From an uncultured Dehalococcoidia bacterium (GTDB lineage: Bacteria; Chloroflexota; Dehalococcoidia; Lucifugimonadales; UBA3495), in the NCBI GenBank assembly GCA_950072105.1, contig CATMOE010000044.1, positions 1 through 31,342 on the forward strand: DNA of 31,342 nt. The letters are read 5' to 3'. The translations under genes were made by a program, and so were the position numbers. Shown piece by piece: positions 17,417 through 30,789 of this stretch. Below the pieces are notes generated by a model that did no database searches, was not told where the DNA came from, and was given only the letters and a program-made list of their open reading frames with translations. Position 1 is the first letter of the stretch, and every line of letters begins with the position of its first letter.

Positions 17417-19429
17417 ATGACGCTGGCATTGACGCTGGACAAACCCATGGAACGGGTCAGACGAGTGTTGGGCATCTCGTCAATCCTGACGCTCGCTCTC
17501 GTCTTCTTGATCGCCGTGTTGATGGCCTTGATCACCATGTACGACATACAGCGCGAGCGCACGTCCTTCTATGACAACCTGGAGAAAAGAGGCGACTTCT
17601 TAAGTAACGGTCTGACCGAGGTATTCGCGGACCACCTTTATTACGCCAGAGTCCGGGAATTGCAAAGTGCGGCCGACCGAGTTATGGCCAGCCTGCCGGA
17701 TATCCAGGCCATTCGGGTGTTCAGAAGAGACGGCAGTGTATTGGTGGACCGGCAAGGGCACGCGGGCAATTCGGCCTACGTTGTTGGCACTGCTAAAGGA
17801 CCGGTGATCTCGGACACCGTGGATACCGGGATATTCGCGTACAGTTACACCAGAGATAGTTTGCTGGTCACCAGCCCCTTAGAGATAAACAGCGAGGTCA
17901 TCGGCACCGTTCAGTTTGCCTTCGACCAAGGGCCATTAAACGCGGAGATAACCCAGATACTTTTGGAGCGGGCCTGGCAGAGTTCGGCGCTTATCGCCTT
18001 GGGCATCGCCCTGGCCTACTTGATCTCACGTGAGGTGACTCAGCCGCTTAAGACATTGGCGGCTTCCGCCGAGAGAATCGGAAACGGCGATCTGGAGGAA
18101 CCCGTTCCAGCCCAGGGCGCGAAAGAGACCAAAGTGCTGGCCAACGCATTGGAGCGGATGAGAGTGGAGCTAAGGGGGCTCTATGGCGGACTAGAGATCA
18201 AGGTGGCGGCAAGGACCCAGGAAATTTCCAATATCAACCAAGATCTAGAAAGAGAGATCGAGGTGCGCAAACTGGCTGAAGGAGCGCTTCGCGACAGCGA
18301 AAGCAGGCTGCAATCCATGATCGATTCCGCCGCCGCGGGAATCATCACCATCGATGATGAGGGCATCGTCGAGTCCGTTAATTCGGCAGCGGAGAAACTG
18401 TTCGGCTATCGCCCGGACGAAATCGTCGGGCAGTCGGTTTCGCTTCTGATGCCGGCGCCCTATCAAGATGCGCACGACGGATATCTGGCAAGCTACAGGG
18501 AAACCGGCAGGTCCGAGATCGTCGGTACCAATCGTGAATTGCAAGCCCAACGCAGGGATGGGACGGTTTTTCCCATCGAGCTGGCGGTGAGCGAATCATG
18601 GTCGGGTGGCCGTAGGACCTTCATCGGAATCATCACTGACGAGACAGAACGTAAACGAGCCGAAGATGAGCGGGCGCGTCATGCCCTGGCTCTTGAAGCG
18701 GCCAACAAAGAGTTGGAAGCGTTCAGCTACTCGGTTTCCCACGACTTGCGGGCCCCGTTGCGGTCTATCAACGGTTTCAGCCAGGCTTTGCTGGACGACT
18801 GTGCCGATGAGTTGGGTGAATCCGGGCAGGACTACCTACATCGGGTGAAGGCTTCCAGCGAGCACATGGCCGAGCTGATCGACAATCTTCTCCAGTTGTC
18901 GCGCATCACCCGGTCGGAGATGAAGTGGGAACAGGTTGACCTCTCCGCGATCGCCGGGTCCATCGCCGCGGAGGTCCAAAGGTCCCAACCCGAACGCCAG
19001 GTGCGGTTCGATATAGCCGAGGGCCTGGCGGACCAAGGGGATGGAAGGTTGTTGCAGGTGGTGTTGGACAACCTGCTGAGTAATTCTTGGAAATTTACCG
19101 CCAAGCAGCCTCAGGCGCATATTGAGTTTGGCGCGGAACGGTTTGACGGTGTGCCGGCTTATTTCGTTCGGGACAACGGGGCTGGATTCGACATGGCCTA
19201 TTCAGGAAAGTTGTTCGGGGCGTTCCAACGGCTACATCCTACGTCCGAGTTCGAAGGCACGGGGGTGGGCCTCGCCATCGTGCAGCGGGTTATCCACAGA
19301 CATGGAGGCAAGGTGTGGGCGGAAAGCGCTGTAGATCGAGGCGCGACATTTTATTTCACACTGAAAACAGGGGAGGAGAATGGAAGTGGAGGGAAAATTA
19401 ATCTTGTTGGTGGAAGACAATCCGGATGA
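17417..19429 (+). CDS. Membrane sensor histidine kinase: 2 TM, HAMP, FixL-like heme PAS, HisKA, HATPase
   Basis: Two hydrophobic segments; HAMP TQPLKTLAASAERIGNGDL; PAS LMPAPYQDAHDGYL...RRDGTVFP; H-box VSHDLRAPLR; N-box NLLSNSWKF; DNGAGF; FQRLH; GTGVGL. Confidence 0.93.
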   Translation: MTLALTLDKPMERVRRVLGISSILTLALVFLIAVLMALITMYDIQRERTSFYDNLEKRGDFLSNGLTEVFADHLYYARVRELQSAADRVMASLPDIQAIRVFRRDGSVLVDRQGHAGNSAYVVGTAKGPVISDTVDTGIFAYSYTRDSLLVTSPLEINSEVIGTVQFAFDQGPLNAEITQILLERAWQSSALIALGIALAYLISREVTQPLKTLAASAERIGNGDLEEPVPAQGAKETKVLANALERMRVELRGLYGGLEIKVAARTQEISNINQDLEREIEVRKLAEGALRDSESRLQSMIDSAAAGIITIDDEGIVESVNSAAEKLFGYRPDEIVGQSVSLLMPAPYQDAHDGYLASYRETGRSEIVGTNRELQAQRRDGTVFPIELAVSESWSGGRRTFIGIITDETERKRAEDERARHALALEAANKELEAFSYSVSHDLRAPLRSINGFSQALLDDCADELGESGQDYLHRVKASSEHMAELIDNLLQLSRITRSEMKWEQVDLSAIAGSIAAEVQRSQPERQVRFDIAEGLADQGDGRLLQVVLDNLLSNSWKFTAKQPQAHIEFGAERFDGVPAYFVRDNGAGFDMAYSGKLFGAFQRLHPTSEFEGTGVGLAIVQRVIHRHGGKVWAESAVDRGATFYFTLKTGEENGSGGKINLVGGRQSG

Positions 19430-19823
19430 AGAGGCGCTGACACTACGGGCATTGGATCGTAGTGGTATCGACAGTCAAGTGGTGGTAGCTCGAGATGGAG
19501 CCGAAGCCCTGGATTACTTATTCGGGACCGGCGCATATGCCGGGCGCGACACGACCATCATGCCCACCGTGACTTTCCTCGACTTGAGGCTGCCCAAGAT
19601 AGACGGTCTGGAAGTGTTGCGGCGGATGCGGGCTGATGAGCGCACCAAATTGCTTCCCGTGGTGACTCTATCTTCTTCCGACGAGAAACATGACATCTCC
19701 ACTTGCTATGAATCCAAGGCGAACAGCTACATCCGTAAGCCCGTCAGCTTTATCGAGTTCACCGAGACGGTGCGCCAATTGGGCCAATACTGGATGGAGT
19801 TGAATGTGCCGCCTGGGATCTAG
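19380..19823 (+). CDS. Single-domain response regulator (Rcp1-like)
   Basis: ILLVEDN, LDLRLPKIDG, ANSYIRKPV and YW motifs; GGAGGAG RBS; overlaps the kinase 3' end. Confidence 0.92.
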   Translation: MEVEGKLILLVEDNPDEEALTLRALDRSGIDSQVVVARDGAEALDYLFGTGAYAGRDTTIMPTVTFLDLRLPKIDGLEVLRRMRADERTKLLPVVTLSSSDEKHDISTCYESKANSYIRKPVSFIEFTETVRQLGQYWMELNVPPGI

Positions 19824-19850
19824 CCGCCTGGGATTTAGAGGAAGGTACGT

Positions 19851-21398
19851 ATGAATAAACCGATCTGCGTTTTGATCGTCGAGGATTCCGAAGACGACGC
19901 ATTCTTCCTGCTGCGCGAGATCCGGCGTGGCGGTTACGACCCATCTCATCGTCGGGTCGATACCCCGGAGGCGATGAAGTCGGCGTTGTCTGACGATAGC
20001 TGGGACATCGTATTGATCGACCACGTTATGCCCCTATTCAGCGGACCGGCCGCGCTGGCTTTGCTGAAAGAGTCGGGGCTGGACTTGCCCGCGATCATAG
20101 TGTCCGGCGTGATCGGAGAGGATGCGGCAGTCGACGCCATGAGAGCTGGCGCTAGAGACTACATCCTCAAGGATCGGCTGAACCGCATGGTGCCGGCCAT
20201 CGATCGCGAACTGGGAGAGTCGCGTCAGCGAAAAGATCTCAAGGCGATGCAAGAGCATGTGTTCCAGTCTCAAAAAATGGAAACCGTTGGACGACTGGCC
20301 GGCGGTATAGCCCATGACTTTAACAACATGCTTACGGCGATCTTGGGCTATACCTACTCGGGGATCAGAGACTTGCCTGAAGGGGACCATCGCCGCTTAT
20401 ATTTCGAAGAGATCCAGAAGGCCGCTGAACGGGCTGCCAACCTAACGCAACAACTCCTGGCATTCTCCCGGCGGCAGATCATAGAGCCTAAGATCGTCGA
20501 TCTAAACCGGCTCGTGATAGATACCAGCACGATGATTCGCAGCGTGATCGGTGAAGGGATCGAGTTGGTCACGTTGCTTGAGCCCGATCTTTACAACGTT
20601 GAAGTGGATTCAGGCCAAATGGCAAGGGTGCTGATAAACCTGGCCACCAACGCTCGGGACGCTATGCCCCAGGGCGGCAAGCTCACCGTGGAGACCAACA
20701 AAGTGACCGTAGGCCAGGGCGCCAACGGAACCGGCAACTCGGTTGCTCCCGGAGACTATACCTTGCTCACGATTTCCGACAACGGAGTGGGCATTTCGCC
20801 GGAGGATAAAGAACATCTTTTTGAGCCCTTTTTCACTACCAAGGAAGTTGGGAAGGGGACGGGATTAGGATTGGCGACATGCTTCGGTATCGTTGAGCAA
20901 AACGGCGGGCGCATCGAGGTTGATAGCGACCTGGACCGGGGCACTACGTTTAGGATTCACTTACCCCGAGTGCCGGATGAAGAGCCGCCGGTTCCCGTCG
21001 CGGATGAACCTGTCAATCTCCATCGCGGAACGGAGACGGTATTAATAGTGGAAGATGAGCCCTTGGTGCGCAACATGGTGGTCCGCATCCTGTTCGAGCA
21101 GGGATACCGGGTGCTGGAAGCTTCCAATGGAGAAGAGGCGCTAAGGGTGGTTAAGAGCCATGTCGGAGAAAATATCCACCTGCTGCTCACCGACTTGGTG
21201 ATGCCCCAGATGGGCGGTAAAGACTTGGCCGAGCAGCTTAAAACCTTGCGGCCCAACACCAAAGTACTGCTAACCTCCGGGTACAGCAACGATCTCGTAT
21301 TTCAAAACGGTGAATTGGGCGGCAATGTTTCATTCATACAAAAACCGTTCATGCCGGCGGACCTGGTAGCCAAAGTTCAGGAAGTATTGGGAGCGTGA
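19851..21398 (+). CDS. Hybrid sensor kinase/response regulator (REC-HisKA-HATPase-REC, CckA-like kinase core)
   Basis: VLIVEDS; GRLAGGIAHDFNN; NLATNARDAM; FEPFFTTK..GKGTGLGL; C-terminal VLIVEDE...LLTDLVMP...KP. Confidence 0.93.
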   Translation: MNKPICVLIVEDSEDDAFFLLREIRRGGYDPSHRRVDTPEAMKSALSDDSWDIVLIDHVMPLFSGPAALALLKESGLDLPAIIVSGVIGEDAAVDAMRAGARDYILKDRLNRMVPAIDRELGESRQRKDLKAMQEHVFQSQKMETVGRLAGGIAHDFNNMLTAILGYTYSGIRDLPEGDHRRLYFEEIQKAAERAANLTQQLLAFSRRQIIEPKIVDLNRLVIDTSTMIRSVIGEGIELVTLLEPDLYNVEVDSGQMARVLINLATNARDAMPQGGKLTVETNKVTVGQGANGTGNSVAPGDYTLLTISDNGVGISPEDKEHLFEPFFTTKEVGKGTGLGLATCFGIVEQNGGRIEVDSDLDRGTTFRIHLPRVPDEEPPVPVADEPVNLHRGTETVLIVEDEPLVRNMVVRILFEQGYRVLEASNGEEALRVVKSHVGENIHLLLTDLVMPQMGGKDLAEQLKTLRPNTKVLLTSGYSNDLVFQNGELGGNVSFIQKPFMPADLVAKVQEVLGA

Positions 21399-21483: not shown

Positions 21484-22407
21484 CTATTTGGCATACTTCC
21501 CTGAGATCTGCGGCGTCGTGCCTTCCAAGCCCTGGTTCGCCCGGTCCAGCCGGGTATCTCTGGCCCAGGTCCGCTTCAAGTCGTCTTGAATGTTGAAGTG
21601 GAGGGTTCCCAGACCCTCGACCTCCAAGTCGATCTTGTCCCCGTCCATAAACGCGCTTAACCCGCGGTGGTTGGTGCCGGTGGCAACCACGTCACCGGGC
21701 TCCAAGGTGTGGATCGAAGATACCCACTCCATTATCCTGGGAATCTTGTGGGCCATGTCGCTGGTGTTGAAGTTCTGCTTAAGCTCTTCGTTGACCCATA
21801 GCCTGATCTGTAGATTGTCCACGTCCGATATCTCGTCGGCGGTGACGATTACCGGTCCCATGGGCGCGAAGGTCTCCCGGGACTTCATCTGGTAGAAGGT
21901 GTTCCCGGGCGGCTCCAATCCACGAGCCGAGCCGTCGATGAAGTTCACGTAGCCGAAGATGTGGTCGAAGGCGTTTTCCGGGCTGATGTTGGACGCCCGT
22001 TTGCCGATGACCAAAGCCATCTCCGCTTCACCCTCAAATATGGCGGCGGGAACATCCGGTAGGACCATCGTGTCCCCATTGCCGATGACCGCGTTGGGCG
22101 ACTTCTGGAAGGCGTTGATGGGCGCAGGGGCGGCCCTGGTGCCATCCTCCATGTAGTTGACGGCCATGGCTACTATGTTGGGGTGGGGCAGTGGCGACCT
22201 GATCCTGACCGAATCTAATGGCACCCCACTGCCACTGTTGATGGCCGCTTCCAATCCAGCTTTGTGCTGTGAGAAGTTCTCAATCACCTTGTTGAGCAGG
22301 TCCTGGGGCGAAGTATGCTCGATCCCACTTACGGCCCCGGTCAGATCAACAACCGTGTCTCCCTTGAGAGCGCCAAATTTAAAGTCGTCGTAAAAAAGTA
22401 GTTTCAT
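21484..22407 (-). CDS. Fumarylacetoacetate hydrolase family protein
   Basis: AVNY, EGEAEMALVIGK, DGSAR, KSRETFAPMGP and LEPGDVVATGT motifs; ATG at 22407 after GGAGG. Confidence 0.92.
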   Translation of the reverse strand: MKLLFYDDFKFGALKGDTVVDLTGAVSGIEHTSPQDLLNKVIENFSQHKAGLEAAINSGSGVPLDSVRIRSPLPHPNIVAMAVNYMEDGTRAAPAPINAFQKSPNAVIGNGDTMVLPDVPAAIFEGEAEMALVIGKRASNISPENAFDHIFGYVNFIDGSARGLEPPGNTFYQMKSRETFAPMGPVIVTADEISDVDNLQIRLWVNEELKQNFNTSDMAHKIPRIMEWVSSIHTLEPGDVVATGTNHRGLSAFMDGDKIDLEVEGLGTLHFNIQDDLKRTWARDTRLDRANQGLEGTTPQISGKYAK

Positions 22408-22562
22408 GTTTCCTCCAAAAATTATCGATAGCTGGTAATGCCGGAGATGCGCTTCATCGTAGTTTTGAACCAAAACATGATAACCACTCCGTTCATGGCT
22501 ATCAAGTTTTTACCGAAATTCTCACCCTTATCCTGAACGGAGACATGTGCGATCAGGGACGG

Positions 22563-23450
22563 TTATGCCTCTGGGGCGCCCCCGGCCAACCGGCGCAATA
22601 TGTCGAACAGAATAACGAAGTCTTTATCGGCAAGGCCCATACCTTGAGCGGCGTTGAGAAATTGATCGGTTACTGCGGTGGTCGGAAGAGGGACGCCCAA
22701 TTCACCACCGGCTTCCAGGGCCAGCCGCAGGTCTTTTTGTATCATGTTGACGTCAAAGAGCGGTTCTTCGGGCATGTTAAGCACCATGGGAAAGCGGTAC
22801 TTCAACGCCGGGGAAGCGACCACGCTGTTCAACAGAACCGTGGTGGCCAACTCTCTGGAGATGCCCATCTTCTCTGCTAACAAGAGGCTCTCGCTGAAGG
22901 CGAGAATCTGCACCGGCAGGTTCAGGTTGACCGCCACCTTCATCATCGCGGCCAATCCGTTAGCGCCGACGTAATCAACTGTCGGCCCGATGTCCTGCAG
23001 TATAGGTTTGATCTCCTCCAAGGCGTCTTGGTCCCCACCGACCATGAAGGAAAGTTGGCCGGCTTTCAAAGTGATCAGGCTTCCGGACACGGGGGCGTCG
23101 AACATCTTGGCCCCGGCCTCTGCCACTTGAGCCGCGATCTGCTTGCTGGCGGCGGGACTGACGGTGCTCATGTCGATGTAGAATTTCCCCGGACTCAAGC
23201 CCGCCAGCAGACCGTCTGGGCCGCCGGTCACGGCGTGCAGAGCCTCGGTGTCCCTCACCATGCTCAGGATAACATCGGACGACTGGGCCACGGCTCGTGG
23301 CGTTTCCCCCCAAGCCATCCCCAAGTCCATCAGCCACTGGGCCCTGGATCTGGTCCGGTTGTAGCCGGTAACCGAATGCCCGGCTTCCAGCAGTCGCCGG
23401 GCCATCTCTCCGCCCATGGAGCCCAGACCGACAAATCCGATATTAGCCAT
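22563..23450 (-). CDS. NAD(P)-dependent beta-hydroxyacid dehydrogenase (3-hydroxyisobutyrate dehydrogenase family)
   Basis: GFVGLGSMG, IDMSTVSP, DAPVSG, catalytic Lys in MKVAVN, and KDL. Starts 11 nt after the upstream stop. Confidence 0.92.
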   Translation of the reverse strand: MANIGFVGLGSMGGEMARRLLEAGHSVTGYNRTRSRAQWLMDLGMAWGETPRAVAQSSDVILSMVRDTEALHAVTGGPDGLLAGLSPGKFYIDMSTVSPAASKQIAAQVAEAGAKMFDAPVSGSLITLKAGQLSFMVGGDQDALEEIKPILQDIGPTVDYVGANGLAAMMKVAVNLNLPVQILAFSESLLLAEKMGISRELATTVLLNSVVASPALKYRFPMVLNMPEEPLFDVNMIQKDLRLALEAGGELGVPLPTTAVTDQFLNAAQGMGLADKDFVILFDILRRLAGGAPEA

Positions 23451-23461
23451 ATTCTGCCCTC

Positions 23462-23986
23462 TTACCGGGTTGGGGCCGGGTAGTCGTCCATGTTGAAGGG
23501 GCTGCCGTTCAGGTTGACGGTGTCGTGGAACAGTTTGGGGTCGGCTATCGTCTGCCTAACGTAGCAGCCGTTCCTAGCGTTTCTTAGAAGACCGGCTACC
23601 TCTGCCGGAGTGTTGGAGGACTCTATCTCGTAGTGGATCTCGATCTTGTCTGCCCGGGCTTGGACCGTTTGGGCCAGCACCGAGCCCTCGGACGCTACGT
23701 GCAAAGCGATGGTAGCTGTAACGTTGCTGACTTCGACCTTCATCATTTGAGCGTACCGCTCAATCTGGGTCATCTCTCAAAATAAGATGGACGAGGCAAA
23801 ATAAGCCAGAGGCGACGGCGCGGAGTTATCCCCCATGGGCTCCCGCTCGGCGCATTTGATGGTGAAGCCGCGAATCTCCGCCTCTTTATTCTGATGCTCC
23901 AGGATCCGGGCGTTGCCCTCCATGGAGAAGGACCGGGAGATGATGTCCGCGGACGCAGGCTGGGAGGAAGGAGCCGGTGTAGTCAT
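23462..23986 (-). CDS. OsmC/Ohr-like peroxiredoxin, predicted selenoprotein (Sec at codon 70, TGA 23777-23779), 174 aa
   Basis: ORFs 23777..23986 and 23462..23773 are in frame (TTT TGA GAG ATG). SP-x10-U matches the OsmC/Ohr P-x10-C catalytic motif; the second Cys is in ARNGCYVRQT; a SECIS-like hairpin follows the TGA. Confidence 0.85.
23735..23771 (-). promoter_or_regulatory. Bacterial SECIS-like stem-loop
   Basis: mRNA after UGA: GAGAU-GACC-CAGA-UUGAGC-GGUAC-GCUCAA-AUGAUGAA-GGUC. Perfect apical stem, G-initiated loop about 19 nt from UGA, lower GACC/GGUC pairing. Confidence 0.75.
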
Positions 23987-24017
23987 GACTGCCTCCAGAT
24001 GGGATTAGATTTCGGGA

Positions 24018-24026
24018 AGTATAGCA
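24018..24026 (-). promoter_or_regulatory. Extended -10 element TGCTATACT upstream of the OsmC-like gene
   Basis: TGnTATACT about 30 nt upstream of the ATG at 23986, which has a GGAGG RBS. Confidence 0.5.
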
Positions 24027-24121
24027 CGGGGAATTCCCTGTAATGAGTGTTCCAATAATGGGTTGAATCGCGCCGGTGGCACGTCGGTCCTGGGCCGATT
24101 CCAGCGCTACCTCCAAGCTGG

Positions 24122-25168
24122 CTAGAAGCCGGGCATCACATCGGCCATAAAAAGCCCGAGGGAATGGGATGCTTCTTCGTGGCTGAGGTCGCCCCACTGG
24201 ACCGATGAAACTAGGTAATTACAGTTGCTTTCGGCGGTATATCGTTCCACGAATTCTCTGACCGTTGCGGGTGATCCTACGATCAACTGCTCACCAGTTA
24301 TTGCTTGGTCGAAGTCTGGGTCCCAAGGATAGCGCCCAACATGTGGTATTGGGCCGTATGCTTCTGGCCTTCTCCACGTGCCTCCCGGCAGAGGTTTTCT
24401 GAAGTTGGCGCGATAAACCTCATACGCCGAACGGGCTCGCCGCATCGCCTCTTCGTTGGTGTCGGCCAGGTATATCCGTTTCGTGCCGCCGTAAAGGGGT
24501 TCAGTTGGCTGGAGCGCGTCGGAGCTATTTTCGTCGACATGCTTTTGAAAGTTCTCCTTGAAGGTCTCCACGGTGGCTGGAAGGCTCTCGATGGTGCCAA
24601 AGTTGATGAAGTTAGCGCCGTATCTGCCCGCGGTTGCCGGGTTTCCCGCATACCAGAAGGGGGGATGCGGTTTCTGCTTGGGCTTGAGCTCCATCCACAA
24701 GTCTTTGAACTGGTAGTACTTGCCCGAAAAGTTGATGAATTCTTGGGTCAGGCCTTGTTTGAGAATCTCGAAGGTCTCATCAAAACGCTCTGTCACCTCG
24801 GCGGGGTCACCGCCCCACATAGCGAACTCCTCCCCGATAGGAGCGCCCTTGCCGATGCCGATCTGGTACCGGCCTCCGCTCAGGTTATCCACCATGCAGA
24901 TCTCTTCGATTAGGCGGATGGGGTGATACATGGGCAATACGTACACCAAGGGGCCGAAGTTGATGCGCTCAGTGCGGGCCGCGACCGCCGACAGGTAGAT
25001 CCCCTGACTTGGAGTCGCGGAAAGCGGGGAGTGGTGGTGTTCCGCCACGTGGTAGCCATACACGCCGCCCCGGTCCGCCTGGGCAAGCAGGTCAAGACGA
25101 TCTGAGTACTGCCGGTCTAACGAAACATCGTCGAGCCGTTCCACGTGATCGAAGATACCGAATTTCAT
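24122..25168 (-). CDS. LLM-class flavin-dependent oxidoreductase
   Basis: MKFGIFD, VAEHH, HPIRLIEE, DNLSGGR, PKQKPHPPFWY and VGSP motifs; GGAGG RBS. Confidence 0.92.
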   Translation of the reverse strand: MKFGIFDHVERLDDVSLDRQYSDRLDLLAQADRGGVYGYHVAEHHHSPLSATPSQGIYLSAVAARTERINFGPLVYVLPMYHPIRLIEEICMVDNLSGGRYQIGIGKGAPIGEEFAMWGGDPAEVTERFDETFEILKQGLTQEFINFSGKYYQFKDLWMELKPKQKPHPPFWYAGNPATAGRYGANFINFGTIESLPATVETFKENFQKHVDENSSDALQPTEPLYGGTKRIYLADTNEEAMRRARSAYEVYRANFRKPLPGGTWRRPEAYGPIPHVGRYPWDPDFDQAITGEQLIVGSPATVREFVERYTAESNCNYLVSSVQWGDLSHEEASHSLGLFMADVMPGF

Positions 25169-25315
25169 GAACGGCCTCCAAATGTAGTGGGTTAACCAGG
25201 CGTGGCGTGGGGACAGTTCTAGGATTGTAAACCTAAACCAAGGGTCTGGGGGGGTGGGGATTTATTGGAGAGCGAATGCCTACGGGAACGCGGGAGTGGC
25301 GAGTGGGGTGGAAAT

Positions 25316-25353
25316 CCCCCCAACCCCCCTTTACAAAAGGGGGGCTAAAGGGG
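25316..25353 (+). repeat. REP-like hairpin repeat
   Basis: CCCCCCAA-CCCCCCTTT-ACA-AAAGGGGGG-CTAAAGGGG, just 3' of the VOC gene. Confidence 0.65.
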
Positions 25354-25369
25354 TTAGTTTCGCTGATCT

Positions 25370-25900
25370 CTAGTCGGCTTGGCCTACGGGGAGTTTGGCG
25401 CCTTGGAAGGGGCCTTCGCTCTCTTCGAATGACTTGGAGTACGCCAGGATCTCTTCGTCGGTTTGGGTGTCTAGGTCGATGGGTCTGCCGAAGCCTTGTT
25501 TAACGACGTAGCCGGTCTTGTAATAGACCTCGCCGATGTTGTTTTCCGGGTCGTTGTAATAGATGCTGACCGAGATTCCGTGGGTTACGGTTCGGAGAAT
25601 CTCAGTTCCCTCTTTCTTGAACCTGCGGTTGAACTCCCGCAAGGCGGCCATGTCTTCCACGATGAAGGAAACCTGTCCCACGTTCTGGGTGCGGGGACGG
25701 GCGCCGTCCGGGTGGTCCGCGCCTCTGGACTTACCAAGGTTCAACTCATGATGCTCGGTGTCCGGGTGAGCGCTGAGGAAACAACTGCCCCGGTCCGGGT
25801 CTTCATCGGTGACCGTTAGACCAATGACGCGGGTGTAGAAATCGCGCATTTTCAGGAAGTCGTCGCAAATTATGCCTAGATGTCCAAGACCTGTGACCAT
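25370..25900 (-). CDS. VOC/glyoxalase family protein
   Basis: LGHLGI, FYTRVIGL, EHHEL, THG and YYNDPENNIGE motifs; AGGAGG RBS. Confidence 0.88.
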   Translation of the reverse strand: MVTGLGHLGIICDDFLKMRDFYTRVIGLTVTDEDPDRGSCFLSAHPDTEHHELNLGKSRGADHPDGARPRTQNVGQVSFIVEDMAALREFNRRFKKEGTEILRTVTHGISVSIYYNDPENNIGEVYYKTGYVVKQGFGRPIDLDTQTDEEILAYSKSFEESEGPFQGAKLPVGQAD

Positions 25901-25959
25901 GTTACCTTCCTCCTACTTGCTCGCTTTTTGAGATTGGCTGGCGCTACGTGGGCTGACGG

Positions 25960-26538
25960 TTACGACGACTGCTCCATCGTCCGAACCGTACCCCGGTGGT
26001 ACCTTTCCGCCGTGGTTTCCGGGTCCCAATCGTCTGGCACCCCGGTTGCCCAGGGAGGTACCGGGTCGTCAAAGGTGAAGATGAAGTCCCGGTCGCCCCG
26101 GCCCCGCCGAAACAGTTCCCGGGCCGTCGGATACTCGTAGTAGATCTCCAGCCGGTTGCCGTCGGGGTCTGCGAAGTAGATGCTCCGCTGATTGGCGTGC
26201 TCAATCATCCGGTCGACGGTCACGCTGTGGGAGACCAGGTGGTCGTGGGCCTCTTTGAGATTGTCGTGGGTATCGACTTTGATCGCGATGTGGGCGTACC
26301 CGACGCCGTTTCGGTCCGGAGGTGGTGACGCGGTTTGGGGGTCTTCTACTTGGACCAGGTCAAAGGTATGTCCGTCGTTATGGTCGTCGTGGCCAAGGCT
26401 CAAGAACACGTCGTTGCCGTGCTCGAGGTCCTCTTCGGCGACTTTGAATCCCATGACCTCGGTATAGAACTTCTTGGCCCGCTGCAAGTCCCGTACCCGG
26501 AGCGCCACGTGACCAATCCTGGATAGTCGAATCGCCAT
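25960..26538 (-). CDS. VOC/glyoxalase (catechol 2,3-dioxygenase-like) family protein
   Basis: IGHVALRVRDL, FYTEVMG, AHIAI and SIYFADPDGNRLE motifs; ATG at 26538 after GGGGAGG. Confidence 0.9.
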   Translation of the reverse strand: MAIRLSRIGHVALRVRDLQRAKKFYTEVMGFKVAEEDLEHGNDVFLSLGHDDHNDGHTFDLVQVEDPQTASPPPDRNGVGYAHIAIKVDTHDNLKEAHDHLVSHSVTVDRMIEHANQRSIYFADPDGNRLEIYYEYPTARELFRRGRGDRDFIFTFDDPVPPWATGVPDDWDPETTAERYHRGTVRTMEQSS

Positions 26539-26590
26539 AAGATCCTCCCCGTCTGTGGGAATTGAGAGCATGATTCGTGGTGGACAAAAA

Positions 26591-26667
26591 CCCCATCCTA
26601 ATCTTCCCCCACAAGGTGGGAAGGGATTTGTCCTCTCCCCCTTTATGGGGGAGAGTTAGAGTGGGGG
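26591..26667 (-). repeat. REP-like palindromic intergenic repeat (copy B, two hairpins)
   Basis: The reverse complement matches 5502-5603 apart from loop changes, a diverged second hairpin and the missing 25-bp insert. Confidence 0.8.
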
Positions 26668-26718
26668 TGAATCATTTCTGATTCAACCTGATTGGCTAAT
26701 TGCCTGCCTAGGGGAAAA

Positions 26719-27576
26719 CTAGCCGTTTAGGTTGCCGGTAACCTCGGCGGGCATGCCTCCAGCCTGCATGTCAATAGCCCTCTTTTCAATAGCGGGCATC
26801 AGAGAGTCGAGCAGGTCCTGGTCGAGGTCGGCGGCGACGCCGGGGTATCCGGCCCGTTCGATCATGGCCGCAAGTTTTCTGCTCTTGAACTGACCCAATG
26901 TCCACTTGAGCGGATCAGGAACTAGGGTTTTGTCGAAGAAGATCCGGTGATTCTTGTTCCTGGGCCCGTAGTGGTAATGGGGAGCGTCGCGGAAGCAGTC
27001 AAATGCCAGCAATTCGGTTTCTTCCGTGTAGTGACGGCCTGGGGTGCCGGCCAGGTCGGCCAAAACGTGGATCGCCAGGCCTCCGTCGCCGCTGGTCTGC
27101 CGGCGCATCTCCAGGCCGAATCGAATGTTGCCTACTTCGAATATATCGGTGCCGCGGTTGTGCTTAACCGTATTTCTGCCTGTCATGTACAATTCGCGGG
27201 CCGTGGATTCAACGTCACCCAGGACTTTTTCCACCTGCTTCGTGTCCACCTCTTTGGCGATCTCCTCGTATCCGGCCGTCTCCAACATGATGGACAGATT
27301 GTTCCGGATCTGCTGGATAGTCCAGTTGATGGGGTTGCCATCGGTGGTGTGGTCCATCCGAAACTTTTTATTCTCTTTATCAGGACCGTATATATAGCTC
27401 TTTTCGATGTCGAAACAGTTGAACCGCAACAAAGTCGTTTCGTCGTCCTGTTTGGCTACTAAAACGGCGACTCCTTGGTCCGAGTGATCCTGAACGTTGC
27501 CGTCCCACAGCTCGTGCTGAACGATGAACGTCACTGGTCCGGCTTCAAATTTGACTCTGCCCTTTTGTTGCATCAT
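26719..27576 (-). CDS. Hypothetical protein with two tandem homologous domains
   Basis: Long ORF with GGAGGT RBS; repeated motif LLRFNCF..KSYIYGP / LLAFDCF..PHYHYGP, each followed by P..WT...L..M.E.AGY. Confidence 0.8.
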   Translation of the reverse strand: MMQQKGRVKFEAGPVTFIVQHELWDGNVQDHSDQGVAVLVAKQDDETTLLRFNCFDIEKSYIYGPDKENKKFRMDHTTDGNPINWTIQQIRNNLSIMLETAGYEEIAKEVDTKQVEKVLGDVESTARELYMTGRNTVKHNRGTDIFEVGNIRFGLEMRRQTSGDGGLAIHVLADLAGTPGRHYTEETELLAFDCFRDAPHYHYGPRNKNHRIFFDKTLVPDPLKWTLGQFKSRKLAAMIERAGYPGVAADLDQDLLDSLMPAIEKRAIDMQAGGMPAEVTGNLNG

Positions 27577-27699
27577 CGCTATACCTCCGGAAAATTTATG
27601 TGTTTTGGGGTAATGGTACTTGTCGGTTAAATCGCACCGGCCGCCCACCATCGTGCCTGGGAGTACGTGTTTCAGACGGCTCCAGCGAATATTGGACGG

Positions 27700-27845: not shown

Positions 27846-29516
27846 ATGGCCGAAATTAGCGGAGCACAATTGGTGATAGATTCCCTGCGGCGAGAGGGTG
27901 TAGATACGATTTACGTCTTACCCGGCGACCCAGTGGGAGACATAGTAAATGGATGGGCGGACGCTGGGCACAAAGCGATCGCTGTTCGTCACGAGCAGGC
28001 GGCCTGCATGGCCGCTCAGGCCCATTCCTACCTGACACGGTCCGTGGGGGTATGCATCGCCGCTTCCGGCGTGGGACAGACCAATACCCTGACCGGAATA
28101 GCCAACGCTTACGCCAACTGCTGGCCGCTGTTGGTCATCGGCGGCTCGTCTGAATTGCGCCGCAGCAACATGGGTGACTTCCAGGAGTTGCCTCAAGTGG
28201 CGATGACGGCCCCGGTTTGCAAATGGACTGCTACGGTGGACAGCATCGCCCGCATCCCAACCCTTATCAACATAGCGATGAAACAGGCCATGTCCGGGCG
28301 TCCTGGCCCGGTCTACATCGACCTGCCCGCCGAGATGATTTCCGGCTCTGAGGACGAGGCCAACATCATCATCCCCCAACCGGCTCCCGAGCCGGCTCGG
28401 CCCCTAGCTGATCCCAATGAGGTTCGGAAGGCATTGGAAGTTCTAGCCGAGGCTGAGCGTCCGTTGTTGATTGTGGGCAAAGGAGCCGCCTGGTCCTGGG
28501 CTGAGAACGAACTGCTGGAGTTCGTAGACCAGACCCAGATCCCCTTCTTGACGTCTCCGATGGGGATGGGAATGCTTCCTCCGGAACACCCGATGAACGT
28601 TTCCGCCGCCAGGACTCAGGCCCTACAGGGCGCCGATACGATATTGATGGTGGGAGCCCGGTTCAACTGGCTCTTCCACTTTGGCCAGCCGCCCCGGTTC
28701 GCCGCCGCATTCAAGTTGGTCCAGATCGATATTGAGGGCACGGAGATCGGAACCAACGTTCCCGCCACCGTCGGTCTGGTAGGGGATGCTAAGATGGTCC
28801 TGGGACAGATGGTGAGCGCATTGAACGATGTGCCCATCTCTTATGGCGAAAGCGCCTGGCTGACCGGGCTGAAAACCAAGTGCGAGGAGAATGCCGAGTC
28901 CATCGAACCGATGCTCAACAGCGACGCCCCAGATATCGGCTACTACCGCATATTGAAAGAGATTCGCGACTACCTGCCCAAGGACGCCATCGTAGTCGCC
29001 GACGGCGCTAGCACCATGGACATCTCTCGCCAGGTCGTGCCGGTGTGGCACCCCAGGCACCGCTTGGACGCCGGAGTGGCCGGTTGCGTCGGCACCGGTG
29101 TTCCCTTCGCCATCGCCTCTCAGGTAGTGCACCCGGACAAGCCGGTTATCTGCCTGCAAGGGGACTGGGCCTTCGGCTTTAACGGCATGGACATCGAAAC
29201 CGCCGCCCGGTTCAAGCTCCCCATCGTTTGGGTAATCTTCCAGAACGCCAACGTCGACAAGTGGGTCCGGAGTCACGTGGACAAGGTAGAAGACCCCAAC
29301 GACTTCACCCCCAGTCTCCGATTCGATGTGATGATGGAGGCGCTGGGAGGACACGGCGAGTTCGTGGAAGGCCCAGAGCAGATACGGCCTGCGTTGGAAA
29401 GGGCCTTTAGCTCCGGCAAAGCCTCGGTGATCAACGTGATCATGGACCCCGGCGCCGGAAGGCGTCAGCAGCAATTCGCTTGGTTGGCCCGGGAAGGGAA
29501 GATGGGTTACTCATAG
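27846..29516 (+). CDS. Oxalyl-CoA decarboxylase / 2-hydroxyacyl-CoA lyase family ThDP enzyme
   Basis: RHEQAA, ANAYANCWPL, GDFQE, SGRPGPVYIDLP, VGKGAAW, VGARFNWLFHFG, RHRLDAG and GDWAFGFNGM motifs; C-terminal RRQQQFAWL. Confidence 0.88.
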   Translation: MAEISGAQLVIDSLRREGVDTIYVLPGDPVGDIVNGWADAGHKAIAVRHEQAACMAAQAHSYLTRSVGVCIAASGVGQTNTLTGIANAYANCWPLLVIGGSSELRRSNMGDFQELPQVAMTAPVCKWTATVDSIARIPTLINIAMKQAMSGRPGPVYIDLPAEMISGSEDEANIIIPQPAPEPARPLADPNEVRKALEVLAEAERPLLIVGKGAAWSWAENELLEFVDQTQIPFLTSPMGMGMLPPEHPMNVSAARTQALQGADTILMVGARFNWLFHFGQPPRFAAAFKLVQIDIEGTEIGTNVPATVGLVGDAKMVLGQMVSALNDVPISYGESAWLTGLKTKCEENAESIEPMLNSDAPDIGYYRILKEIRDYLPKDAIVVADGASTMDISRQVVPVWHPRHRLDAGVAGCVGTGVPFAIASQVVHPDKPVICLQGDWAFGFNGMDIETAARFKLPIVWVIFQNANVDKWVRSHVDKVEDPNDFTPSLRFDVMMEALGGHGEFVEGPEQIRPALERAFSSGKASVINVIMDPGAGRRQQQFAWLAREGKMGYS

Positions 29517-29580
29517 GCGATCACACAGACCTTAGTGGCGAAGAGCTAATCTATTGCCGATCGGCAAGGAGACGTGAAAA

Positions 29581-30789
29581 GTGGGTAAAGCGCTAGAAGG
29601 AGTCCGAATAATCGACCTGACTCAGTTCGAGGCCGGCACTTCGTGTACCCAGTTGCTGGCTTGGCTGGGAGCGGACGTTATAAAGGTGGAAGAGCCGACT
29701 CACGGCGATCCGGGCCGGGTCACCAATACCGACATGCCGGGCGTGGACAGCGGTTACTTCCTCAACCTGAATTCCAATAAGCGCAGCGTCGCCCTGGACC
29801 TGAAGCAGCCAAAGGGGAAGGATATCTTCTTCGAGTTGGTGCGGCAGGGCGACATCGTGGCCGAAAACCTAGCCCCTGGCACTCTGGAAAGGCTGGGATT
29901 GGGCTACGACGTTCTCAGCGAGGTTAACCCCAAGATTATTCTGGCTAGGATCAAGGGGTTTGGCACCTACGGTCCCTACTCCGAATACAAGAGCTTCGAC
30001 ATGATTGCCCAGGCCACCGGCGGGTCCATGGCCGTGACCGGCAAAGCCGGCGACCCACCGATCCGTCCCGGCGCGACCATCGGCGACACCGGCACCGGCC
30101 TCCACGCCGCCGTGGGCATCATGGCCGCCTTGTGGCAGCGCCAAACCACCGGTAAGGGACAGGTCGTCGAAGTCGCGATGCAGGACGCAGTGGTCAACCT
30201 GACCAGGGTAGCCATGTGCACCTTCAATGAAACCCATCAATCCCGTCCCCGGGCAGGCAACAATGCGCAAGGATTGCCGGGCACCCGGACCTACCCCTGC
30301 AAACCCGGCGGATCGGACGACTGGGTCTACACGGCCGCCACGCCCCGGCGCTTAGGTCTTTGGCTGACGTTGATCCGTGCGATCGGCGGCGATGAGATGG
30401 CCGACGACCCCAACTATTCGGACTTTGACTGGGTAGTGGAGCACACCGATGAAATCAACGAAATGATTGAGGCCTGGACCATGGAGCGCACCAAGTACGA
30501 GGTGTTCCACATCCTGGGCAAGGCTGGTGTTCCTTGCGGTCCCACCCTGAACGCCGTAGACATTTACAGTGATCCCCAGTTGTTGGCGCGAGACATGATC
30601 GTGACTCTGGAACACCCGGACCGCGGCCCCTTCATGGTCCCCGGCTGCCCCGTAAAGATGTCCGACTCGCCAGTCGAGTTGGAGATCGGCCCGTCCCTAG
30701 GCATGCAGACCGAAGAGGTCCTGAAAGAACTGCTCCACATGACTGATGGTGACTTGGCGGAGCTACGGGAGCAGAAGACGATTCCGTAG
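29581..30789 (+). CDS. frc: Class III (CaiB/BaiF) CoA transferase, formyl-CoA transferase-like
   Basis: LEGVRIIDLTQFEAGTSCTQLLAWLGADVIKVE, NSNKRS, catalytic Asp in IGDTGTG; adjacent to the oxc/HACL-like gene; GTG start after AAGGAG. Confidence 0.8.
   Translation: MGKALEGVRIIDLTQFEAGTSCTQLLAWLGADVIKVEEPTHGDPGRVTNTDMPGVDSGYFLNLNSNKRSVALDLKQPKGKDIFFELVRQGDIVAENLAPGTLERLGLGYDVLSEVNPKIILARIKGFGTYGPYSEYKSFDMIAQATGGSMAVTGKAGDPPIRPGATIGDTGTGLHAAVGIMAALWQRQTTGKGQVVEVAMQDAVVNLTRVAMCTFNETHQSRPRAGNNAQGLPGTRTYPCKPGGSDDWVYTAATPRRLGLWLTLIRAIGGDEMADDPNYSDFDWVVEHTDEINEMIEAWTMERTKYEVFHILGKAGVPCGPTLNAVDIYSDPQLLARDMIVTLEHPDRGPFMVPGCPVKMSDSPVELEIGPSLGMQTEEVLKELLHMTDGDLAELREQKTIP

Follow-up and report, generated by a model that had tools for sequence, protein, structure and literature searches.

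A probable OsmC-like selenoprotein gene spanning an in-frame TGA in an uncultured Dehalococcoidia bacterium

The locus and its surroundings

The window, by which we mean the whole stretch of 31,342 nucleotides that was analysed (contig CATMOE010000044.1, assembly GCA_950072105.1), carries two short open reading frames in register on its minus strand (23986..23462), as seen by direct reading of the frames. The upstream frame encodes 69 aa (23986..23777) and closes with a TGA at 23779..23777; a GAG lies directly 3' of this TGA and is followed by the ATG at 23773 that opens a frame of 103 aa (23773..23462), TGA-GAG being the in-frame joint between the two. When the TGA is taken as a residue, a product of 174 aa with U70 and C141 results, the sequence around U70 being ...SPLAYFASSILF-U-EMTQIERYA... 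(in a longer form ...APSPLAYFASSILF-U70-EMTQIERYAQ...) and that around the second position ...NARNG-C141-YVRQT... (ARNGCYVRQT). The product also has the spacing P59-x10-U70. A GGAGG precedes the upstream ATG (23996..23992), and nothing comparable was found upstream of the internal ATG at 23773. A preliminary description of this DNA had reported the two in-frame ORFs of 69 and 103 aa joined by TGA-GAG, a GGAGG ribosome-binding site at the upstream start only, a second Cys at position 141 and the P-x10-C/U spacing; all of these sequence details are correct, and only the minus strand was left unstated there. The features of the locus are the following.

23462..23986, minus strand: complete coding sequence of a predicted 174-aa OsmC-like selenoprotein, with ATG at 23986, Sec at codon 70 and TAA at 23464..23462
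23777..23779, minus strand: in-frame TGA, predicted from comparative evidence to encode Sec (U70), at the first conserved Cys column of OsmC/Ohr proteins
23747..23763, minus strand: SECIS-like hairpin within the coding region (fold and covariation)
23992..23996, minus strand: GGAGG ribosome-binding site, 5 nt 5' of the ATG at 23986 (direct reading)
23564..23566, minus strand: TGC codon of Cys141, a candidate resolving cysteine (translation, conservation and PDB alignments)

The gene belongs to a run of seven consecutive minus-strand genes (21484-27651) encoding a DUF7700 protein, two glyoxalase/dioxygenase-fold proteins, a luciferase-like monooxygenase, the OsmC-like protein, a 3-hydroxyisobutyrate-dehydrogenase-like (HIBADH-like) dehydrogenase and an FAA-family hydrolase, the ATG of the dehydrogenase gene lying 11 nt past the OsmC-like stop. 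The run looks like a catabolic cluster. Genes for a TPP enzyme and a family III CoA-transferase flank it on the plus strand (27846-30789), and two adjacent sensor kinase genes, both ending in TGA, are found at 17417-21398 (plus strand), one encoding a HAMP-PAS-HisKA-HATPase protein of 670 aa and the other a hybrid HisKA-HATPase protein with receiver domains (515 aa). Searched by tblastn with five of the window neighbours, 43 homologous loci proved syntenic in just two cases, the closest relatives L025 and L026; in addition, a single FAA-hydrolase match lies near a paralogue in the same genome (L046). Pfam searches of flanking ORFs (30 of 71, drawn from 25 loci) revealed neither a recurring partner nor any thioredoxin or lipoyl protein. 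As gene order is limited to two relatives and no partner recurs, the context yields neither a reductant nor a firm functional link.

Of the sampled words of 23300-24200, 98-100% also occur in each of thirteen DNA runs that come from several studies, and 56-83% in six metatranscriptomic libraries. RNA-library contigs from three runs, of 587 nt (23461-24047), 608 nt (23486-24070) and 691 nt (23304-23994), span the TGA and have no differing letter at 23777-23779, and a contig from X12, one of the thirteen DNA runs and possibly the one this DNA came from, agrees at the same three positions. A TGC, TGT or TGG, which had been named as the observation that would speak against Sec, was looked for in other data, and the public assemblies and RNA-library contigs have TGA. 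The RNA-library contigs attest presence and continuity of the locus and leave transcription unproven, since DNA carry-over is possible. In two of the runs they stop at 24047 and 24070, the second running into an adapter-like loose end. None of the three RNA libraries covers the bins 24075-24105, through which the DNA contig continues; this faintly suggests that a transcript may begin 60-85 nt 5' of the ATG, apart from the monooxygenase gene. At the other side, two RNA-library contigs leave the window sequence at 23461-23463, precisely where the OsmC-like gene ends, and one close relative (L025, 3523-4276) has about 750 extra bases between the OsmC-like and dehydrogenase genes; strains therefore differ in downstream content.

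Family, fold and the codon 70 column

The read-through product scores 54.8 bits with the Pfam model PF02566 OsmC (gathering score 27.5) and 140.4 bits with NF041052, 'OsmC-related (seleno)protein' (OsmC_like_Se; curated cut-off 95), residues 23-161 matching model positions 5-144 of 144. A six-frame genome search with NF041052 recovers the same site at 131.9 bits, marked '1 TGA'. The preliminary description had assigned the protein to the OsmC/Ohr-like group and suggested a family search; both models, each over its cut-off, bear this assignment out. An AlphaFold2 (AF2) model built on an alignment of 36 rows (A2) has a mean pLDDT of 90.8 and a pTM of 0.81. With this model as query, Foldseek returned 64 PDB matches at E <= 0.001, and the 33 of them that are listed are all OsmC, OsmC-like, Ohr or related structural-genomics entries, the best being 1lql and 2onf (E 1.5e-9, TM 0.65-0.79). 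The A2 profile matched 23 distinct PDB sequences, all OsmC/Ohr, with 3cje at the top (5.9e-22) and 2onf at 1.5e-13. The U70 column aligns with a Cys of 3cje, 2opl, 9wo1, 2onf and 1lql, and the C141 column with the second Cys of 3cje, 9wo1, 2onf and 1lql. The columns invariant in the 36 sequences of A2 are P59, U/C70, A137 and C141, and the redox motif U70-E-M-T73 has the form UxxT.

Zhang, Fomenko and Gladyshev (2005, Genome Biol 6:R37; PMC1088965) list an OsmC-like protein (COG1765) with the motif UxxT as one among 15 new prokaryotic selenoprotein families, and the legend of their Fig. 3 gives a predicted SECIS element for it, in which the apical-loop G is conserved; the family, with the same motif, is tabulated again in reviews of 2022 and 2026. 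The preliminary description, too, had mentioned Sec-containing OsmC-like proteins as described before. Because the family with UxxT was published in 2005 and the window gene passes the cut-off of a curated NCBI model, we rate it as already known: the selenoprotein call is correct, and the gene is a plain member of low novelty.

Codon 70 was compared among homologues from several searches. A scan with one genome per species gave 13 relatives, all from metagenome-assembled genomes (MAGs) of Chloroflexota/Dehalococcoidia and 58-95% identical, with TGA at the aligned column in 13/13. The six-frame NF041052 search of 401 genomes of the phylum (tallies that take in the unpublished genomes G272 and G227, on which none of the conclusions depends) gave 26 places over the cut-off in 23 genomes; 25 of these have exactly one in-frame TGA and the remaining one (G042, L049) has none, carrying TGC. 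The OsmC-like family of Chloroflexota appears almost obligately Sec-dependent (25/26 over the cut-off). Some Chloroflexota genomes, including the window's own, have two OsmC-like copies. An alignment of 44 sequences was assembled from the window gene, the 13 MAG loci and 30 loci from the phylum search (23 over the NF041052 cut-off and 7 just under it), leaving out the over-cut-off places G140:C11 and G387:C168 (each '1 TGA'). The Sec column holds TGA in 36/44 and a Cys codon in 8/44 (5 TGC, 3 TGT), and neither Trp nor any residue other than Sec or Cys was found at codon 70 in the 44 aligned homologues. The second Cys (C141) is present in all 43 homologues covering its column. The proposal that the TGA sits at the catalytic position and encodes Sec is supported by this exclusive alternation of TGA and Cys (n=44), as far as comparison of homologues can tell.

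The sole Cys form over the family cut-off (L049; G042:C3:604033-604458, minus strand) still pairs 6/7 of the stem positions of the hairpin described below and has lost the loop G (CUU, not GUU). The gene has the appearance of one that changed from Sec to Cys recently and keeps the stem as a relic.

A database search with the read-through product, restricted to proteins of 95-305 aa, gave 151 matches, of which the best 120 are 95-114 aa long and extend over no more than 59% of the query. With lengths of 103-104 aa and a coverage of 59%, the short matches would be C-terminal pieces. Among the matches listed, gene callers therefore cut the OsmC-like family at the TGA, much as had been foreseen for standard callers.

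Hairpin, Sec machinery and alternative readings of the TGA

A bacterial SECIS element is a stem-loop just 3' of the UGA with a G in the apical loop (the bSECISearch model). The window gene has a hairpin with a 7-bp stem (UUGAGCG/CGCUCAA) and the loop GUA (23756..23754), of the form G-U-N; the stem starts 13 nt past the UGA, and the whole element occupies +17..+33 counted from the U of UGA. In an ungapped alignment (A1) of 36 TGA genes (31 distinct) over 48 nt from the UGA on, the first loop base (G24) is invariant, and stem columns 17-23 form standard pairs with columns 27-33 in 86.6% of cells, compared with 29-48% in a slid-partner control in which the 3' partner was moved by 1-3 columns; the hairpin was derived from these same sequences, which gives it an advantage over the slid controls from the outset. 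Compensatory changes, affecting both sides of a pair, occur in 6/7 stem pairs (39 cells), and the covariation score is 0.516 vs. 0.151 ± 0.024 for shuffled alignments, 0/500 shuffles reaching 0.516. The stem lies inside the conserved peptide TQ[IL]ERYAQM, so nucleotide conservation partly reflects protein-coding constraint. Support for the hairpin rests on covariation and not on energy, since the 101 nt 3' of the TGA, folded as a whole, are not unusually stable (z = -0.62).

Sec and Cys forms differ at these columns. Among the window gene and L038-L067, the 23 TGA genes pair 136/161 cells and the 8 Cys genes 22/56, and by this pairing count the hairpin is absent from Cys forms. The first loop base is G in 23/23 Sec forms, with loops GUA, GUU, GGU or GUC. 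An Rfam scan of 23400-24100 at E <= 1 found no model matching the hairpin. The same region gave a match to HCV_SL1412, which we consider to be due to chance (16 bits vs. 38, E 0.99).

The assembly encodes the Sec machinery, with profile matches to selA (550 bits), selB (352 bits), selD (385 bits) and tRNA-Sec (66 bits), all over their cut-offs; ARAGORN also reports a tRNA-SeC with anticodon tca (UCA). The selA, selB, selC and selD genes, whose presence had been put forward as a check, are thus all found in the genome. They lie on contigs other than that of the window, in an assembly of 164 contigs (92% complete, 6% contamination), and their origin from one organism with the window gene therefore rests on binning. 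An in-frame TGA is also present in selD, within HCAG-U-AGK (L001 1531-1533; own genome, G000:C60). A second OsmC-like selenoprotein gene is found in the same genome (G000:C74:10383-10811, plus strand; L046 at about 1420-1950), with 144.9 bits to NF041052, one in-frame TGA in the motif ...ASILF-U-EMTQIERY... and a hairpin UUGAGAG-GUA-CUCUCAA that shows compensatory changes; on the opposite strand 3' of it are a gene of the FAA-hydrolase family and a LUD-domain gene. The Sec-containing SelD and the two OsmC-like copies together give the organism at least three selenoprotein genes, which agrees with the earlier claim that it uses selenium. As for the genetic code, TGA is the stop codon in 2/11 genes examined around the locus and in 5/21 long frames of the window, and no internal in-frame TGA was found in the other 10 genes examined around the locus; codes 4 and 25 are therefore ruled out.

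The position of the TGA is beyond chance, because 35 other homologous genes from other assemblies have an in-frame TGA at the identical column and 8 have a Cys codon there without any stop. Comparative sequence evidence makes it very probable that the locus is a genuine Sec-decoded gene of the OsmC-like selenoprotein family, and we are almost as confident that it is a single gene, not two, for a 174-residue selenoprotein of OsmC/Ohr fold belonging to the OsmC-like (COG1765/YhfA-type, NF041052) family. One alternative is that the TGA terminates translation, leaving either one gene that is split or in decay, or two separate small ones for 69 and 103 aa, without Sec. Gene callers treat the locus in this way, as do the best 120 database matches with their short lengths and partial coverage, and TGA is an ordinary stop in other window genes. 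Nevertheless, termination is very improbable: across 36 genes with identities as low as about 20%, the stop falls at a single column and is TGA in every case, neither TAA nor TAG occurring there, and the protein is conserved on both of its sides. A pseudogene would keep neither a covarying hairpin nor a Cys-only alternation, the OsmC fold cannot form from half a domain, and the GGAGG stands at the upstream ATG only.

Read-through of the TGA as a standard residue (Trp, Cys or Gly), by a variant code or near-cognate suppression, would give a product of identical length. Such decoding is hardly credible in view of the ordinary use of TGA in the neighbouring genes, where it ends two of the 11 and is lacking in frame from the other 10, and of a complete Sec system that includes a Sec-containing SelD; moreover, the position alternates with Cys alone, and TGA forms have the SECIS-like element whereas Cys forms lack it. 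A sequencing or assembly error for TGC or TGT would require a single base, and the source is a metagenome-assembled genome, yet this is the most far-fetched of the explanations: four runs (one DNA run, possibly the source, and three RNA libraries) agree at 23777-23779, the 13 DNA runs contain 98-100% of the sampled words of the region, and 35 other assemblies share the TGA.

Proposed function and comparison with known systems

By analogy with related families, we lean towards a role of the OsmC-like selenoprotein as a hydroperoxide reductase. SelB carrying Sec-tRNA(Sec) would bind the hairpin that starts 13 nt past the UGA, and selenocysteine would enter at codon 70, replacing termination; SelB-mediated delivery of Sec via a hairpin is presented as established for bacteria generally (PMC9312934). 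Judging from the family, U70 would lie in the N-terminal part of a long helix (H59-81 in the AF2 model), where it may attack a hydroperoxide or other oxidised substrate and be converted to a selenenic acid. Cys141, in a second helix, would then resolve the selenenic acid to a selenenyl-sulfide, and a thiol donor, e.g. a lipoyl protein or thioredoxin, would re-reduce the latter. This U70/C141 peroxidase chemistry is carried over from the Ohr/OsmC families. In Ohr structures, a catalytic Arg and a Glu activate the peroxidatic residue. No invariant Arg column was found in the 36 sequences of A2; E47 is nearly invariant in them and D46 mostly so, the window protein having A46.

A hydroperoxide reductase competes chiefly with some other redox role, since the closest solved structures belong to uncharacterised proteins and no invariant Arg was seen: the gene would still encode a true Sec protein of OsmC fold, but one with thiol-disulfide (selenenyl-sulfide) oxidoreductase activity or with a different electrophile as its target. 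The annotation of COG1765 goes no further than 'predicted redox protein', the nearest solved structures (3cje, 2onf, 1lql and 2d7v) are structural-genomics entries without known function, identity to characterised Ohr/OsmC proteins is just 10-18%, and Arg invariance is absent in A2. The position of the gene in a catabolic-looking run, with glyoxalase-fold, luciferase-like monooxygenase, dehydrogenase and FAA hydrolase genes, is also in keeping with such a role, although this neighbourhood is retained in the two closest relatives only. On the other side, the window protein retains both Cys columns of the peroxidase subfamilies and has the same fold as the Ohr/OsmC peroxidases, and to our knowledge all assayed subfamilies (Ohr, OsmC and mycoplasma OsmC-like) are peroxidases; the portions of the family literature available to us contained no assayed member of the OsmC-like Sec clade. 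A non-peroxidase role is therefore possible and seems to us the less likely one.

It is also conceivable, and we regard it as improbable, that the clade serves as a selenium-dependent partner of recalcitrant-carbon oxidative catabolism in marine Dehalococcoidia and not as a general peroxide scavenger. Its substrates might, e.g., be organic hydroperoxides that flavin monooxygenases form as intermediates or by-products. The idea draws on the nearly obligate Sec dependence of the family in Chloroflexota and on the window copy, which lies directly upstream of a dehydrogenase gene and among oxygenase, glyoxalase and FAA-hydrolase genes. If it were true, deep-ocean carbon turnover would be tied to selenium supply.

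The value of the locus lies chiefly in annotation. Callers split the gene into two hypothetical ORFs, as in essentially all database relatives among the matches listed, and the selenoproteomes of marine Chloroflexota are therefore under-counted. The organism, with its two OsmC-like genes and SelD, is marked as a selenium user. No new question is raised by the gene, since the family, UxxT and the SECIS element were already published in 2005 and the family has a curated model at NCBI that names it.

The window gene shows no essential difference from the OsmC-like selenoprotein family as known. Like other members it exceeds the NF041052 cut-off and has the UxxT motif (here U-E-M-T), and an in-frame TGA followed by a hairpin with an apical-loop G is common to it and to the family as described in the published figure legend; the origin is marine metagenomic both for its relatives and for the runs in which the gene occurs. 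The sub-clade formed by the window gene, L025-L037 and the paralogue L046 has U-E-M-T, in contrast to the commoner U-L-L-T of most other members, and exceeds the 144-position NF041052 model by an extra 22 aa at the N-terminus and 13 aa at the C-terminus. The nearest solved relatives are 3cje (Jannaschia sp.) and 2onf (Ta0195) by sequence, and 1lql (Mycoplasma pneumoniae MPN625) and 2onf by fold; both Cys positions align in all three, which are Cys forms, and the entry titles mostly give no function. With the Ohr/OsmC hydroperoxide reductases (PDB 1n2f, 1zb8, 1nye and 1qwi) the window protein shares the fold, two conserved redox positions on two helices and the P-x10-C/U spacing. It differs from characterised members in its low identity to them, with weak profile E-values to Ohr (1e-4 to 1e-2), and in having no invariant counterpart in A2 to the catalytic Arg of Ohr, and where these enzymes have their first Cys it would have Sec.
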